Positions 24,365-32,000 of a stretch of DNA of 32,000 nucleotides are shown here, one piece after another (position 1 is the first letter of the stretch; every line of letters begins with the position of its first letter). Both the position numbers and the translations under genes were made by a program. This DNA is from Promethearchaeota archaeon (GTDB lineage: Archaea > Asgardarchaeota > Lokiarchaeia > Sigyniarchaeales > SOKP01): the NCBI GenBank assembly GCA_030606485.1, contig JAUWGH010000002.1:30001-62000 (forward strand), read 5' to 3'. The notes beneath the pieces are model-generated. The model had not been told where the DNA came from, did no database searches, and saw nothing but the letters and a program-made list of their open reading frames with translations.

Positions 24365-25858
24365 TTATTTTGATTTTTTTTCTTTTGGTTTCAGAGAGTA
24401 TTTCTTAAAAAAGAGTTTTCTATGTGAATCAGAAATATCTATAATTATTTCTCCAAGAACATGTTTTCCATCTTTAATTTCTAATGGATAATTAATCTGA
24501 ATAGATTCAAAAGGAAAAATTTCTTTTATTGTTGTACTCCAAGGTCGTTTTTCGAATAGTTCTTCCACAATAGCAACCCTAATTTGTAAATTTTCAAGAA
24601 GATATCCAATAACATTTTCTATTGTAATTGTAGTAGCCGTTTGACTTTCATTCAGTTTTTGAGTAACCCTTAATATTTTTCTTGTTCCAAACGGCGTTGC
24701 GACCTCAGCTTCCTCTTTCAATTCTGGTCTTGGTTTAAATGGTTCTTCTCTATCTATGTCTTTAACTATAAAAACCTTCCTTTTAAGAACCGTATATTGA
24801 GATACTTTCTTTAATCTTGCTAGGAACAAGACAGAATTTAAATTTTCCACTGAAAATGGTTCAGAAAGTAAATATCCCTTTTTTATAGCGTCCTCTATAA
24901 TTTCTACTCCTATACCTGATCGTGCTAAAACTGTGTTTTTCATCGGTCCACTTCCAACAGAACCCACCGAGATATCAGCATTTTCAGCAGCTAAATCTGT
25001 GCAAAAATTGCAACTTGATGATTTAAATTTATCTAATTCCTTTATTTTATAGGATTTTACTTCTGTATCTCCTTTATAAAGATAAAATCTTCCTTTATTG
25101 ATATCCATTTTTGTTATTTCCGCTAAATTAATTCCCTCCTTCTCAAAAAATGGTAATAATGCTTCATGTGAAAATGAATCCATACAAAATAATCCAATTT
25201 TAAAAACATGTGCTCTCATAAAATATTTTAACATTCCAAGTGGACTACTTTCCATTTTAAACACAGCATCTATGTTGCAAGGAGTTCCTACAAATGCGAT
25301 AGAGCCCATGTCATTTCTAATCCCGTCCATTAAAGAATCAACTGTTTGTGAATGGCTATAAATAGAACCAGCAGCTTCGATAGCTTCTTCTTTAGTAGTA
25401 ATAAGTTGAGGCAACGGAACCCATGGTTTATTTGGATTTTTTTTAGTAACAACTGCTCCGTCAATCAAATTTTCATCAAATAAATAACACAATAAGCTCG
25501 TAACGGTTCCTCCGTCCTGACCACCAATAACTTCAGGAATTCCACTTTTCGTAACATAACCTGTTTTAAAAAGACCAACAAGTTGTTCGGGATTAGTAAT
25601 AGTCCTCGGACATTGATTATAACAAATTCCACACCCAGAACATTGACCGACTAATCGTGGTTCATCATAAATTGGATCCCATTCAAGAGCACTGCAAATC
25701 GCTGCACAAGTGCCACAATGAGTGCAAACACCTGTTCTTATAACTTCCTTTACTAATTTTCCAAATGAATCTTTTTTCCCTTCTAATTTCCTTCTTATAT
25801 ATTCAAAAGAATGTTCATACTTAGATTCAGATTTTACTTTATTTATTTCTTCACTCAC
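24365..25858 (-). CDS. FrhB/FdhB-family (F420-binding) protein with N-terminal 2x[4Fe-4S] and a C-terminal extension
   Basis: CTHCGTC...CSGCGICYNQCP, QDGGTVT, VGTPC, GLFCMDSF, CNFCTD...DISVG; about 140 extra C-terminal residues. Confidence 0.88.
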   Translation of the reverse strand: MSEEINKVKSESKYEHSFEYIRRKLEGKKDSFGKLVKEVIRTGVCTHCGTCAAICSALEWDPIYDEPRLVGQCSGCGICYNQCPRTITNPEQLVGLFKTGYVTKSGIPEVIGGQDGGTVTSLLCYLFDENLIDGAVVTKKNPNKPWVPLPQLITTKEEAIEAAGSIYSHSQTVDSLMDGIRNDMGSIAFVGTPCNIDAVFKMESSPLGMLKYFMRAHVFKIGLFCMDSFSHEALLPFFEKEGINLAEITKMDINKGRFYLYKGDTEVKSYKIKELDKFKSSSCNFCTDLAAENADISVGSVGSGPMKNTVLARSGIGVEIIEDAIKKGYLLSEPFSVENLNSVLFLARLKKVSQYTVLKRKVFIVKDIDREEPFKPRPELKEEAEVATPFGTRKILRVTQKLNESQTATTITIENVIGYLLENLQIRVAIVEELFEKRPWSTTIKEIFPFESIQINYPLEIKDGKHVLGEIIIDISDSHRKLFFKKYSLKPKEKKSK

Positions 25859-26076
25859 TCTATAAAACCTCTATTTACACAGAGATTTGGTTATAATTAC
25901 TTTATAAAAAACTTAATCCTTAAAAAAAATTATTAAAATTAAATAGTAATTTAATTTTTAAAGAAAGACATCAAGTAAAAACAGATAAGTTATTGATTAT
26001 TTTGTTTATCTTGCTTCAATTTTTTTATCATTTTAGTAGTTAAGAGCCGAACATTTCAATGATAATCTCCTATACA

Positions 26077-26432
26077 TTATAAAAGATGCTTAAGAATTTT
26101 TTCATCACCAATTTCTCCCAAATGTTTTACCGCCTTTTTTTAATATTTGCTCTATTACTTGAATTGAAATAATTACTTAATAGTTCTATTATCTGTCTTT
26201 TGCAAATCTTGTTCTTATTGTTAAATTTCTTTAGGAATGTAATGCATTTTTTTAAATATATTTTTGGATTTGAAAATTCTTTTTTGATTTTTTATTAGTT
26301 TTCGAAATTATTATTAAAGAAGTTATCAATCTCGAAAGTAATCTCATACAAATATTTGGAGAATCGGAAATAATAACCGAAACCATATAACTTAAAATAA
26401 TTTCTTATGGTTTCTCGAAACAAATAATTATT
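26077..26432 (-). pseudogene. Possible degraded HEAT/PBS-repeat gene remnant
   Basis: One minus-strand frame runs about 100 codons, interrupted by TAA-TAA at 26292-26297. Adding one A to the A7 run (T7 at 26135-26141) gives KKKAVKHLGEIGDEKILKHLL, which is HEAT-like. Confidence 0.3.
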
Positions 26433-26636
26433 CTATTTTCCATTTCTGTCAGTATCGAATAATTTATATAATCATTAAGATAAAAGTTATTAAATAAGGT
26501 AATTTCAAAATGTAAAATTATTGAATCTGAAAATTAATATAAAAATTTTTTTTAATTTGGAGCATTTTAAATTTTTTTAATCTAATAGTATAAATTTTTA
26601 AATAAAAATCATAAAACGAGTTGATGTGAAAAAAAA

Positions 26637-28580
26637 TTGAGTAAAGAAATTTTACGCATTGGATATTATGCATGTCAATGAGGCTTGAATATTTCTGCGA
26701 AAGTTGATTGTTCTGAAGTTGTAGAGTATATGAAACAATTTGATAATGTTGAAACAAGTCGCATCTTTAGTTTTTTATGTACTGAACAAGGGCAGAAATT
26801 AATAATGGACGATATCAAAGAAAAAAAGATTAATCGGGTTGTAGCCGCAGCCTGAACTCCTAGAACTCATGAACCGATTTATAGAGAGTCTTTAGAACGG
26901 GCAGGACTTAGTAAATTTTATTTTCAAATGGTAAATATTAGAGAACAATGTTCTTGGATTACAGAAGACGAAGTTTCAGCAACCGATAAAGCAAAAATTT
27001 TAAGCAGAGCAGGTTATGAAAGGGCAAAAAGATTGGAAATAGTACCGACAAAAATTATTCCTATAAAAAAAGTTACTTTAGTAGTTGGTGGAGGAATCGC
27101 TGGATTAAATGCGGCATTAGACCTGGCAAATCAAGGAATAAAGGTATATTTGATAGAAAGTAAAACTACAATTGGGGGCAGAATGGCTCAGTTAGATCGA
27201 ACATTTCCAACTGATGATTGTTCTATATGAATTCTTGGTCCAAAAATGCTTGAAGCTAATCGAAATGAGAATATTGAAATTATTAGTTATAGTGAAGTTG
27301 ATAAAGTTGAAGGATATGTTGGAAATTATGAAGTTACGATAAAGAAAAAACCTAGATATGTTATAGAAGATTTGTGCAATGGTTGTGGAGATTGTACGCC
27401 AGTATGTCCAATTTACATACCGAATTATTGGCAAGAAAATTTAGGTTCAAGAAAATGTATCGATATATGTTTTGGGCAAGCTATTCCTTTTGTTTATGAT
27501 CTTGAAAAAGAATCTTGCGTTGAATGATATGCTTGTGTAGATGCTTGCGAGCCACATGCAATTGATTTGAGTCAAGAACCTGAATATGTCGAAATTGAAG
27601 TGGGTACAATAATAGTTGCAACGGGTTGGGATTTATATAATCCTACAGAATATGGATATGGAGAATATCAAAATGTTATAAACGAAATCCAGCTTGAAAG
27701 GATATTAGCACCAAATGGTCCAACAATGGGCCATGTAAAAAGACCATCAGATGGAAAAACACCTAAAGAAATATTATTTATTCAATGTGTTGGCTCGAGA
27801 GATACAGAAAACGCGTATTGTTCTGGTGTGTGTTGCATGATCGCTTTAAAAAATGCTAAATTACTTAAAGAAGAAATCCCTGATTGCCATATAACCATCT
27901 GCTACATTGATATAAGAGCATTTGAAAAGAACTTTGAAGAATACTATATGAGAACTCTTGATAAAGGTATTGACTTTATTCGAGGTAAAGTTCCAGAACT
28001 AATAGAGGATTCTGAAACCAAAAATCTCAAGGTAAGAGTATATTCTTCATTAACAGATGAGATAATAAAAATTGATGCAGACTTAGTAGTTTTATCAACT
28101 GCGGTATTACCATCTAAAGGAACGAGGCAAATAGCAGATGTTCTTGGAATTGATTATGATACAAATGGATACCTGACTGAACATCATTTTGGCTTAAGCC
28201 CTCAGGAAACTAAATATCTAGGAATTTATATTTGTGGTTTTGCGCAAGGACCAAAAAATATATCATACTCAGTTTCTCAAGCGAGAGCAGCCGCAAGTAA
28301 GGTTGCAGAATTGACATCCAAGGGAGAAGCGGAGCTTGAATTAATATGTGCGATTGTTGATGAAGAAAATTGTATTTCTTGTTATCGCTGCGAAAAAAAT
28401 TGTCCAAAGAATGCTATTATTGTACCTGAAGGAAAAATTGCTGAAGTCGATGAGATCAATTGTGACGGGTGTGGAATCTGTGCAACATGTTGTCCAACTC
28501 AAGCAATACAAATTAGATATTATACAGATGATCAAATATTTAATCAAGTCTTAGCACTAATAAAGGAAGTAAATGTATAA
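26637..28580 (+). CDS. hdrA: Heterodisulfide reductase subunit A, selenoprotein with 4 UGA-Sec codons (647 aa)
   Basis: TTG 26637 and track fragments 26928, 27246 and 27567 all lie in one frame. In-frame TGA at 26679 (CQUG), 26853 (AAUTPRTHE), 27228 (DDCSIUILGPKM) and 27525 (CVEUYACVDAC) each align to conserved HdrA cysteines. GGGIAG, NIREQCSW and QCVGSRD...CSGVCC are intact. Confidence 0.93.
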
Positions 28581-28592
28581 ACCGAAAAATTC

Positions 28593-28598
28593 AGGTGA
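28593..28598 (+). promoter_or_regulatory. Shine-Dalgarno site for vhuD
   Basis: AGGTGA, 5 nt upstream of ATG 28604. Confidence 0.6.
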
Positions 28599-28603
28599 GA
28601 TAT

Positions 28604-29071
28604 ATGAAAATGAATATCATTACGTTTGCTTGTAATAAATGAGGTTATAGTGCTGCAGATTTAGCTGGTGTTTCAAGATTGAAATATACTCCCAATGTAA
28701 AAATTATTCGTCTGCGATGTACAGGTAGAGTCGATATAAAACACCTAATTTATGCAATTAATAATGGTGCCGATGGAGTAATGGTTGTAGGATGACAAGA
28801 AAATCAATGTGAATTTAAAACTGGAAACTTTATTGCCGCAAAGCATGTCGAATTTGTTAAGAGAATTCTAGATAGGCGTGGTCTGGGAGGAGACCGAGTA
28901 AACATGTATAACTGCACTGGAGCTGAAGCTGTAAAATTTGTAAAATCGGTCGAAGATATGGTATATAAAATAGAAAAATTGGGATTGAATCCATTAAAAA
29001 CAGATCAAGCAGTTATTAAGGCAGAAATAAAAGAAGTAGATAAAAAATTAATAACCAAAACCCCCATTTGA
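28604..29071 (+). CDS. vhuD: MvhD/VhuD [2Fe-2S] subunit, selenoprotein with 2 UGA-Sec codons (155 aa)
   Basis: Manual translation MKMNIITFACNKUGYSAADLAG...IRLRCTGRVD...GADGVMVVGUQENQCEF...LGLNPLK. TGA at 28640 and 28793 replace the cysteines of CNWC and GC. It is absent from the ORF track. Confidence 0.92.
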
Positions 29072-29139
29072 ATGATCTTTAAAATGAAAGCTTAAAATTA
29101 AGAAATTTTATTGGGACGTCCCTGCAAGGGATATGGGGG
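29061..29139 (+). promoter_or_regulatory. Candidate SECIS / structured RNA element 3' of vhuD
   Basis: CCCCCAU (29061-67) pairs with AUGGGGG (29133-39). Inside it, AUGA (29084-87)-N12-AA-N13-GA (29115-16) surrounds a UAAAAUU/AAUUUUA stem. Confidence 0.5.
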
Positions 29140-29163
29140 CTTAAAAAAAATTTAATTAGGAAG

Positions 29164-30645
29164 GTGAATCTTATAGAAAATATTGATCTAAAAAATTTAA
29201 TGGAATCTACATATAACGCTATAAGTAATTTTCAAATTCGTGCGTTATATGAAGGAAAAGATGATATTTTAAAATTTGGAAGATTTAGTGAGGAAGATTT
29301 TAATTTTATTTTAGATTCACTTCTCGATGCTGAGACAGAAAGAAATTTAATATTAAAAAAATTAATAGGGTTTCCTCCGCTTACTCTTGAAGAAATAGTG
29401 GAGAAAGTGGAATATGATAAGAAAATTTTAGTACCAACAGTTGAATATTTAACCCAACAAGGTTATGTTGAAAAATTAATTGAAATAAAGACAGAAATTA
29501 AAAAAGTAAAAAATAAAGAGGGAAATTTTATAGATAAAGAAATAAAGATTGAAATTGTTCGATATCAAGCCAAATCCCTTGATAATTCTTTTCGAGAAAA
29601 TTATTTTGAGCCAATTTCTTTAGTATTTGAGAATAATTTTTGTTGTAATTGTGGTTATTGCTCATCAATATGCCCAGTTGGCTCAATAACAGTAACTGCA
29701 GATGATCTTAAAATTGATTCTGAGACTTGCATTAAATGTGGACTTTGTTTTTCTGTTTGCCCGAGGTCATTTCCATCTGAGCATATTTTTACAGTTTTAA
29801 ATAAATTAAATCCTAATTTGAAGAATGGTGCCGCAATTAATTATTATATAAATGCATATACTGCAAGTACAAAAAGTGATGAAATTAAAGAAGTATGCCA
29901 AGATGGTGGTATAGTAACAACATTATTATATTATTTACTGAAAGAAAAAGAAATTGATGCTGCGATAGCAGTAACCCATTCTGAAGATATTTGGAGACCA
30001 AAACCTATTATAATTGAGAATGTTGATGATCTTTATAAAACCGCTGGTACAAAATATGCTAATTCTCCAAGTTTAACAATTTTGAATGAAGCACAAAAAT
30101 TTGATAAAATTGCAGTCGTTGGAACTCCATGTATGATGTTAGCACTCAAAAAAGGAAGTGTTTATCCAATTGGAACATCTTTTTTTAATAATATTAAATA
30201 TACTATTGGTTTATTCTGCATGGAATCATTCAGCTATGATAATGTTATCAATATAAGCACTGAAATTTTTAATAAGAAATTAGAGAACATTTTAAAAATG
30301 GACATTAGTGGAGGAAAATTTATTGTTAAAGATAAAAATGGAGAAGAAGCCAAAGTTCCATTAAAAGAAGTAACTTCCTTAGCAAGAGATGTATGCCATT
30401 ATTGTAGTGATTTAACGTCCGAATTTGCAGATATTTCAGTAGGTTCAATAGGCTCAAGTGCAGGTTGGTCTTCAGTTATTACAAGAACAAAAGTTGGAAA
30501 TGATTTATTTAATAAATTGATAAATGGCAATTTAGTAGAAGTTAAGGATTTAGCTGAAGTAAAACCTGGATTCGGTTTGGTTAAGAAAATTTCAGGAATT
30601 AAAAATTCAAAATGCAAAAAAATTGAATTCAATGTAAAAAAATAA
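29164..30645 (+). CDS. FrhB/FdhB-family protein with N-terminal helical/wHTH domain and 2x[4Fe-4S]
   Basis: GTG start after AGGAAG. CCNCGYCSSICP...CIKCGLCFSVCP, QDGGIVT, VGTPC, GLFCMESF, CHYCSD...DISVG. Confidence 0.88.
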   Translation: MNLIENIDLKNLMESTYNAISNFQIRALYEGKDDILKFGRFSEEDFNFILDSLLDAETERNLILKKLIGFPPLTLEEIVEKVEYDKKILVPTVEYLTQQGYVEKLIEIKTEIKKVKNKEGNFIDKEIKIEIVRYQAKSLDNSFRENYFEPISLVFENNFCCNCGYCSSICPVGSITVTADDLKIDSETCIKCGLCFSVCPRSFPSEHIFTVLNKLNPNLKNGAAINYYINAYTASTKSDEIKEVCQDGGIVTTLLYYLLKEKEIDAAIAVTHSEDIWRPKPIIIENVDDLYKTAGTKYANSPSLTILNEAQKFDKIAVVGTPCMMLALKKGSVYPIGTSFFNNIKYTIGLFCMESFSYDNVINISTEIFNKKLENILKMDISGGKFIVKDKNGEEAKVPLKEVTSLARDVCHYCSDLTSEFADISVGSIGSSAGWSSVITRTKVGNDLFNKLINGNLVEVKDLAEVKPGFGLVKKISGIKNSKCKKIEFNVKK

Positions 30646-30662
30646 TAAAATTTTGTTAAAAA

Positions 30663-31775
30663 ATGAGTCAAGATAAACGAATAAAAAATTTTAAAGATTT
30701 AATTAACGAAGTTCATGATAAAGGTATTTGTCAATTATGTGGTGGATGTGTAAGTTTTTGTAGTTCTGCTGATTATAGGATTATTGATTTTATTAAACCA
30801 GATTTGCCACCACAATTTGTAAATGAAAAAGAATGCTTAGAGTGCGGAATATGTTATCATATTTGTCCACAAACTAAAGTACTAGAAAATAATTTAAATA
30901 TTCAATATAATTATATCAAACCACTTGGCAATTATAAAGAGATATATTCATTTCAAGCATTAGATAAAGATCTCTTAAAAAATGGAACTGATGGTGGAGT
31001 AATATCTGCTATATTATTGTATTTATTGGAACATAATTTAATTGATGGAGCAATCGTTTCAAAAAAGTTGGGACCATTTGCGAGAGATTCAATGGTTGCA
31101 AAATCTAAAAATGATTTAATTTTAGCTGCAGGTTCTCATTTTGATATTTCTTCACAAGTAACAGAAATTGCTAATTTTAGTACCTATAGTCCAACAATTA
31201 TGGCATTAAATAGATATAAATTTAAAAAGCTAGCTGTTATAGGAACTCCTTGTCAAATTTATACGATAAGATGTATGCAAGAAATGGGGGTTACCCCCTC
31301 TCAAAATATAAAATATCTACTTGGATTATTTTGTTATGGAAATTTTACAATGGGTAAAGATAAAAAAGAGAAATTTGAAACTCAATTTAATTTAAAAATT
31401 GAAGAGATTGAGAAATTAAATATTAAGGAAGATATGTTAATAAAATTAAAAGGAAGTGAAGTTATTCAGCATATATCGTTTAGTGAATTATCAGATTATA
31501 TACGTTCCGCTTGTAATGCATGTAATGATTTTACTAATATTTATGCAGATATTTCATTTGGTGGGTTATCATCACCTGAAAAATATACAACAACTATACC
31601 TAGAACCAAACTTGGAATAAATATTGTTAAATCCGCTTTAAATGAGGGATATATAAAAGTTTTATCGGATTTAGAAGGAAAAAGAGATAAAATGTTAGAA
31701 AAATTAATTCAGTTTTCAAAATATAAAGAAGATAGATATAATTTATCGCAAAAAAATTTAGGAGTTAAATTTTAA
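30663..31775 (+). CDS. FrhB/FdhB-family protein with 2x[4Fe-4S]
   Basis: CQLCGGCVSFC...CLECGICYHICP, DGGVIS, IGTPCQ, GLFCYGNF, CNACND...DISFG. Confidence 0.88.
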   Translation: MSQDKRIKNFKDLINEVHDKGICQLCGGCVSFCSSADYRIIDFIKPDLPPQFVNEKECLECGICYHICPQTKVLENNLNIQYNYIKPLGNYKEIYSFQALDKDLLKNGTDGGVISAILLYLLEHNLIDGAIVSKKLGPFARDSMVAKSKNDLILAAGSHFDISSQVTEIANFSTYSPTIMALNRYKFKKLAVIGTPCQIYTIRCMQEMGVTPSQNIKYLLGLFCYGNFTMGKDKKEKFETQFNLKIEEIEKLNIKEDMLIKLKGSEVIQHISFSELSDYIRSACNACNDFTNIYADISFGGLSSPEKYTTTIPRTKLGINIVKSALNEGYIKVLSDLEGKRDKMLEKLIQFSKYKEDRYNLSQKNLGVKF

Positions 31776-31800
31776 AATTACTCAAATTTCTAACAATTCT

Positions 31801-32000
31801 ATGGTTATAAAAGGAAAATTAAGAGAATATCTTAATAATTGCTATCAATGTGCTATGTGTAGTGGCATTTGCCAAATGGGAAGAATACAAAAATACACTC
31901 CTAGTAGGATAATACAACTGATCATTGAAGGTTTTGAAGATCGAATTGTTGAAAGTGGAATGCTTTGGGATTGCTTAACTTGCAATTCTTGCCTTGAAAA
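31801..32000 (+). CDS. hdrC: HdrC-like Fe-S subunit or domain, 5' partial
   Basis: MVIKGKLREYLNNCYQCAMCSGIC...PSRII...LWDCLTCNSCLE; runs off the window, so a longer HdrD/HdrCB fusion cannot be excluded. Confidence 0.7.
   Translation, partial: MVIKGKLREYLNNCYQCAMCSGICQMGRIQKYTPSRIIQLIIEGFEDRIVESGMLWDCLTCNSCLE

Follow-up and report, generated by a model that had tools for sequence, protein, structure and literature searches.

The hdrA-vhuD locus and its in-frame UGA codons

Two adjacent genes of a Promethearchaeota (Lokiarchaeota) archaeon, hdrA and vhuD, together carry six in-frame UGA codons, which raises the question of which signal directs their reading as selenocysteine (Sec). The genes lie within the window, the whole stretch of 32 kb of DNA that was analysed, which corresponds to bases 30001-62000 of contig 1 in a 3.75-Mb genome of 13 contigs and displays a G+C content of 28.5%. 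On the forward strand, hdrA extends from 26637 to 28580 (647 codons, with TGA read through as Sec), contains four in-frame UGA codons at 26679, 26853, 27228 and 27525, and ends in a TAA stop at 28578-28580; its product comprises the FAD and Fer4 Pfam domain set typical of HdrA. The vhuD gene (mvhD; FlpD family, Pfam PF02662, E-value of 1.2e-43) is located on the same strand from an ATG at 28604 to position 29071, with a ribosome-binding site GGTGA at 28593-28597, two in-frame UGA codons at 28640 and 28793 and a stop UGA at 29069-29071. The two genes are separated by a 23-nt spacer, confirming the distance given in an earlier interpretation made from the letters of this DNA, termed here the sequence-only reading.

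Comparison with paralogues and relatives supports the six codons as Sec positions. In six paralogues from the same genome, Cys or Sec occupies the positions of the four hdrA UGAs, and seven Cys-type paralogues of vhuD have Cys at the positions of its two UGAs. The codons at 27228, 27525, 28640 and 28793 are retained in three same-genus genomes, whose fetched loci cover these four. Both open reading frames are intact in the same-genus genomes, and the hdrA codon changes separating the three from the window display synonymous to non-synonymous ratios of 20:7, 17:12 and 21:12. The six-UGA hdrA-vhuD pair is unique in its genome, as the other three Sec-type pairs comprise five UGAs each. The Sec positions of HdrA are 15, 73, 198 and 297; the fourth is located in the motif VEUYACVDAC, where the three other Sec-type paralogues of the genome have Cys.

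Two frhB-like genes identified by Pfam follow downstream, from 29164. The first, an frhB/fdhB-like gene 3' of vhuD (29164-30645, forward strand; Pfam PF04432/PF04422; ribosome-binding site ~10 nt upstream), contains zero in-frame TGA codons and is outside the recoded hdrA-vhuD unit. Elsewhere in the genome, the Sec machinery is represented by SepSecS, by a selB that exceeds its curated cut-off and by a candidate tRNA-Sec scoring at the threshold of Rfam RF01852. SepSecS, the candidate and selB lie within 6 kb of one another on contig 2 (188523-194265). The candidate tRNA-Sec is 113 nt long, leaving room for an insertion or intron; aragorn at default settings reported 15 tRNAs in the genome, and tRNA-Sec was absent from its output.

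A Lokiarchaeota-type SECIS follows vhuD

Directly after vhuD, a perfect 7-bp GC-rich clamp encloses 65 nt (29068-29132), exactly as the sequence-only reading had described. The 5' strand CCCCCAU (29061-29067), which overlaps the final vhuD codons, pairs with the 3' strand AUGGGGG (29133-29139), and only one other perfect inverted repeat of 7 bp occurs in the 32 kb when at least 5 G/C and a spacer of 20-100 nt are required. The folding energy of the single sequence is not significant (z-score of -1.2, with 28 of 200 shuffles folding equally well), and significance therefore rests on homology.

A covariance model, designated R1, was trained on 22 canonical elements, comprising those of 18 orthologous vhuD loci from other genera and four paralogues from the same genome; the window locus and its same-genus orthologues were excluded from this training set. 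The sample consisted of vhuD downstream regions, for which 60 relatives were searched, and 30 fetched loci plus the own-genome paralogues were used. Searching the window with filters off, R1 revealed a full-length match at 29058-29147 on the forward strand (model positions 1-79 of 79; 45.7 bits, E-value of 6e-10), which bears out the earlier proposal of a eukaryote-like SECIS of the type reported for Lokiarchaeota and answers the check, suggested at the time, with a model made from Asgard elements. The runner-up in the 32 kb reaches 13.6 bits. No better SECIS was thus found in hdrA or further downstream in the window: the only R1 match is located after vhuD, and hdrA has none of its own. Within the family, the window element displays the lowest R1 score (45.7 bits versus 49-90).

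The distribution of R1 matches follows that of the UGA codons. In this genome a match lies directly 3' of every one of the four vhuD copies that contain two in-frame TGA codons, and the seven Cys-type copies have none. The own-genome search, in which 150 of about 7400 candidates were scored, gave at least five matches, namely those after the four Sec-type vhuD genes and one after a vhuU-like Sec gene. Each of the 36 other family genomes searched contains two to eleven full-length matches, and a coordinate cross-check placed a match directly after a two-TGA vhuD at no fewer than 21 loci of other genomes.

Searches for other classes of signal were made around the two genes. An Rfam scan of 25500-32000 with E-values up to 10 returned only chance matches, all of them outside the element and to families other than SECIS, and a pattern scan of 26400-29300 for euryarchaeal GAA_A-type SECIS gave no match. 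A loose type I pattern scan of that same interval did find matches inside hdrA and vhuD; because none of these scores with R1, they were treated as noise of AT-rich DNA. One of them, at 27837, has two mismatches beside the core and an AA end, and was rejected.

These data were also weighed against a non-recoding role, in which the RNA would be a terminator or stabilising hairpin at the 3' end, separating vhuD from the frhB-like gene. In its favour, the GC-rich clamp stands at the end of a gene in AT-rich surroundings, and in many orthologues a five-T run, resembling an archaeal termination signal, comes straight after the clamp helix. In the window, however, the clamp is followed by CUUAAAAAAAA, with no T run, and a terminator would need neither the accessory hairpin nor the conserved AUGA, GA and A-rich loop described below. 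The contrast between Sec-type and Cys-type vhuD copies, together with the presence of the element after the vhuU-like Sec gene and selD, argues further against this role, which we consider highly improbable.

The structured RNA after vhuD is therefore very probably a genuine Lokiarchaeota-type SECIS (lokiSECIS) of the hdrA-vhuD pair. Its location is that which defines the type, since it lies just after, and overlaps, a selenoprotein gene and, for HdrA-VhuD, after VhuD only. As the sole R1 match in the window, with hdrA lacking its own, it is the only candidate signal for the six UGAs. This leaves standing the earlier suggestion of one SECIS acting over ~2.4 kb and two cistrons, the first UGA, at 26679, being located 2393 nt upstream of the core.

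Architecture of the element

The aligned sequences indicate that the element folds as a three-way junction comprising a closing helix (helix I), a SECIS hairpin and a 3' accessory hairpin (helix III). Helix I is the clamp. The 5' half of the non-Watson-Crick quartet is the core AUGA at 29072-29075, which is aligned to a family column that reads AUGA in 63 of 67 elements and GUGA, UUGA or a shifted motif in the remainder. The core begins one nucleotide past the vhuD stop, and the 4-nt junction holds this stop UGA, which is thus located inside the SECIS junction and immediately 5' of the core AUGA. Because the final vhuD codons overlap with helix I, every ribosome that terminates at the vhuD stop has to unfold the junction.

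Helix II comprises nine positions, with its 5' strand at 29076-29084 and its 3' strand, placed by the covariance-model alignment, at 29106-29114; the pairs are U.G, C-G, U.U and U.U, followed by five A-U or U-A pairs. It carries a 21-nt apical loop (29085-29105), which includes a second AUGA and a palindromic ministem (29091-29094/29099-29102) present in both the minimum free energy (MFE) and centroid folds. The 3' half of the quartet is the core GA at 29115-29116, aligned to a conserved GA/AA column, and C29117 after it yields the family consensus GAC. The accessory hairpin, GUCCCU/AGGGAU with a GCA loop (29118-29132; strands 29118-29123 and 29127-29132), begins one nucleotide 3' of the core GA and displays a pair probability of 0.94. 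Its location between the core GA and helix I makes the element a three-way junction.

The sequence-only reading had favoured a different fold, an extended hairpin with its core AUGA at 29084-29087 and the helix UAAAAUU (29093-29099)/AAUUUUA (29104-29110) capped by an AAGA tetraloop (29100-29103). Every complementarity that it listed exists in the sequence, including AUCUUU (29075-29080) with AGGGAU (29127-29132). Two AUGA motifs are likewise present (29072-29075 and 29084-29087), and a loose scan readily finds AUGA...GA arrangements in this AT-rich region. Alignment with 66 related elements, however, assigns the core to the first AUGA and to GA 29115-29116, and the R1 alignment places 29084-29087 within the apical loop. 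The first AUGA is conserved in 63 of 67 aligned elements and in the same-genus genome G001, where the second is AUUA (G29086 replaced by U). The extended hairpin would also break the accessory hairpin, which covaries family-wide, and would leave the helix just above the second-AUGA core unpaired, as the reading itself conceded. Its energy is -12.7 kcal/mol, versus -18.4 kcal/mol for the homology fold and -21.0 kcal/mol for the MFE structure. There is thus very little chance that the extended hairpin is the functional fold. The reading had offered as its alternative a four-way junction with the hairpin GUCCCU-GCA-AGGGAU at 29118-29132. That hairpin is present, and both it and the junction are retained in the three-way architecture adopted here, while the fourth arm is not.

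Covariation supports three helices

Covariation was assessed on model-guided alignments, as a plain MAFFT alignment of all elements misplaces the genus-specific insertion described below. In the 67-sequence alignment, which was fitted to the structure and so favours it, 87.7% of cells are paired, versus 38-52% after a shift of the 3' partners by 1-3 columns. An unfitted MAFFT alignment of 22 sequences gave 84.9% versus 39-52%. Double-sided changes were observed in all 19 pairs (67 sequences). By helix, 81.5% of cells are paired in helix I, with double-sided changes in 5/5 modelled pairs, 93.7% in helix II, with 9/9 pairs compensated, and 82.7% in helix III, with double-sided changes in 5/5 pairs. 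The covariation check proposed for vhuD 3' regions thus supports all three helices. The accessory hairpin hardly varies across the family in its CC/GG pairs and its YGCR loop, and the sole substitution within it between the window and its sister genomes, G29118A, converts a G.U into an A-U and so keeps the pair. Two loci from another family of the order (L030 and L032) carry GC-rich elements with the same three arms and entirely different sequences.

Three further elements of the genome were inspected. One, at 254766-254846 of contig 5 (forward strand), follows a vhuU-like small ORF (motif DCULSCAAH), the stop UGA of which lies within the core AUGA. Another, at 354980 of contig 1 (reverse strand), was found by pattern, is a weak R1 match (25.6 bits) and lies after an ORF of 55 codons that includes a hydrophobic stretch and ends in GGGUC. 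A closing helix and an accessory hairpin are observed in both. The selD SECIS, at about 20420-20470 of contig 1 and ~9.5 kb before the window, displays the same outer plan, with an outer closing helix, an AUGA/GA core, a 7-bp helix topped by a ministem (type II) and, ahead of the closing strand, an accessory hairpin on the 3' side (CACCU-GUG-AGGUG). The third arm is thus not specific to vhuD.

A genus-specific variant of the SECIS hairpin

Comparison of the window element with the rest of the family identifies it as a genus-specific lokiSECIS variant with a type II-like loop. The apical loop comprises 21 nt, versus 11 nt in canonical elements, reflecting an insertion of 10-11 nt that occurs only in the four same-genus sequences and is palindromic, giving rise to the 4-bp ministem. 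Helix II contains a tandem U.U mismatch (29078/29112 and 29079/29111), such that seven of its nine positions pair, and is therefore predicted to be weak. In the homologous register its mean pair probability is 0.20, versus a family median of 0.87, and a competing helix II register, which would sequester the core GA, is predicted to be thermodynamically favoured. The MFE structure nevertheless retains helices I and III.

Across the four species-level genomes the variant differs by 1-2 substitutions or a 1-nt indel, with no disruption of the core, helix I or helix III. At 97.5-98.3% identity across the aligned locus, the same-genus genomes are barely informative about selection acting on the variant loop. 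The weakest-looking element accompanies the genome's only six-UGA pair.

An alternative is a decaying descendant of a lokiSECIS, its function impaired or lost through the loop insertion and the U.U mismatches. The six-UGA pair would then be poorly expressed or on the way to a pseudogene, with the three canonical hdrA-vhuD pairs of the genome as backup. The lowest R1 score of the family and the weakest predicted helix II are consistent with such decay, as is the presence in the genome of three other Sec-type and several Cys-type hdrA-vhuD pairs. Against it, the variant is near-identical in four species-level genomes with an intact core and intact helices I and III, the sole change in helix III preserves its pair, the open reading frames are uninterrupted with the four covered UGAs kept, and the hdrA changes are mostly synonymous. 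Furthermore, an extra short stem has been published for a few VhuD lokiSECIS elements (Mariotti 2016, PMC4989117), and type II forms are common in selD (Huang 2024, PMC11227280). Decay of the element is unlikely.

Proposed mechanism of recoding

We infer that a single SECIS recodes the UGAs of both hdrA and vhuD, up to 2.4 kb upstream. In this model hdrA and vhuD would be translated from one mRNA, and the kink-type AUGA/GA core and the A-rich loop would recruit the Sec-specific elongation factor (EFSec) with Sec-tRNASec, either directly or through an adaptor. The four hdrA and two vhuD UGAs, located 279 to 2393 nt upstream, would then be read as selenocysteine. The terminal UGA of vhuD abuts the core, presumably too close for recoding, and would therefore terminate translation, while hdrA ends in TAA.

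One 590-nt metatranscriptome contig, ~97% identical, spans the hdrA/vhuD boundary (28385-28974), although such libraries can hold DNA. Among the contigs of four RNA-labelled runs compared with 26400-30700, none covers the SECIS. No experiments on Asgard SECIS elements were found in the literature searched; both PMC4989117 and PMC11227280 rest on computation, as do the passages on Asgard SECIS in a 2026 review.

Comparison with known SECIS elements

The closest described relative is the lokiSECIS (Mariotti 2016, PMC4989117), defined by a 9-bp stem with AUGA immediately on its 5' side and GA (AA in some) immediately on its 3' side, and by an apical loop of 11 nt that is A-rich in its first five positions and ends in (A)G. 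In that study every HdrA-VhuD pair displayed a single lokiSECIS after VhuD and none elsewhere, serving up to six UGAs over ~2 kb, and HdrA never ended in UGA. The window element agrees with this description in its position directly after vhuD and overlapping its end, in the AUGA before and GA after a nine-position helix II, and in the use of one element for both genes and up to six UGAs over ~2 kb. The stop codons also correspond, with HdrA ending in UAA and a VhuD stop that may be UGA, and in both cases the tools and models for eukaryotic, bacterial and euryarchaeal SECIS give no match. It differs in its 21-nt loop with a ministem and in the two U.U of helix II. Moreover, the loop starts with UGAAA rather than AAAAA and ends in GAAA, without the terminal AG. 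The closing helix and accessory hairpin observed here are unmentioned in the main text of that paper.

The survey of Asgard SECIS was extended to >400 genomes by Huang 2024 (PMC11227280), in which type I is the major form for hdrA/frhD, and hdrA and frhD/vhuD share one element. The eSECIS-like type II of that work comprises a GA_[G/A]A core, an upper stem of 7-15 bp with at most two mismatches, a bulge of 4-12 nt, a ministem of 2-8 bp and an apical loop of 2-6 nt. The corresponding values in the window element lie within these ranges (core GA/GA, nine-position stem, two mismatches, 4-bp ministem and 4-nt loop), with a bulge of 6 nt on the 5' side (29085-29090) and 3 nt on the 3' side. In contrast with the mostly type I elements reported there for hdrA/frhD, the genus of the window has a type II-like form. 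The family-specific 'lower stem' pairs drawn for frhA match helix I of vhuU-type elements, but the published model consists of a lower stem plus an internal loop, with no third helix.

Eukaryotic type II SECIS elements (Rfam RF00031) differ in having a helix II of about 12-15 positions, versus nine here. The window element also possesses the 3'-side accessory hairpin, leading to a three-way junction, serves two cistrons and gave no Rfam match at E-values up to 10. The VhuD SECIS elements of Methanococcales and Methanopyrus are associated with the same gene, share the 5' AUGA and 3' GAC (GAC/AAC is reported for methanococcal VhuD elements; PMC4989117) and likewise serve two VhuD UGAs with one element. 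They differ in their GAA_A bulge and GC upper stem, neither of which is found here, and in those organisms hdrA has its own SECIS.

SBP2 is not known from Asgard archaea. A three-way junction built on a kink-turn, the k-junction, is said to have been described by Wang et al. in 2014, a paper cited in PMC11227280. The window element bears a resemblance to it, and no more than that, in the tandem G.A/A.G pairs at the junction and in a third helix that leaves the 3'-GA strand; the bulge-strand polarity of a standard k-turn is not obviously met.

Significance of the three-helix shape

The shared SECIS of HdrA and VhuD has already been proposed in print (PMC4989117, PMC11227280), and the window is another example of it. 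The principle of one signal for six UGAs is not new, and the contribution made here is chiefly a correction of the structure. The three-helix shape supported by covariation is apparently absent from the main texts of the literature consulted. A third helix is not mentioned in those of PMC4989117 and PMC11227280, and the passages seen of the 2026 review present type I and type II models only. Use of the full three-helix shape should improve the detection of SECIS elements and selenoproteins in Asgard genomes, and the third helix points to a testable extra contact for a SECIS-binding partner.

More tentatively, and with the balance of probability still against it, Asgard SECIS elements may be obligate three-way junctions in which the accessory hairpin acts as a second recognition site. 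If so, the accessory hairpin could be a docking site for an Asgard SECIS-binding factor or for the C-terminal domain of EFSec. On this view a 10-nt palindromic insertion would, in addition, have recently turned a type I loop of this genus into a type II-like one, in the very element that serves most UGAs. The natural variant, with its long loop, ministem and weakened helix II, could reveal which features of the signal are dispensable, and bears on the origin of type I and type II SECIS forms en route to eukaryotes.

Observations in more distant relatives and other genera

In two more distant relatives (loci L025 of G060 and L031 of G038), a three-arm layout follows a UGA-containing vhuD and the AUGA/GA core is not visible; L025 displays AAAU...AA and L031 a GC-rich stem without AUGA. 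Both may be core variants that would escape the search patterns published so far.

In many orthologues from other genera (L009, L010, L014, L019 and others), a five-T run is located immediately after helix I. Such a run is a typical archaeal termination signal. In the genus of the window CUUAAAAAAAA stands in its place, so that the extent of read-through to the frhB-like gene at 29164 may vary from genus to genus.
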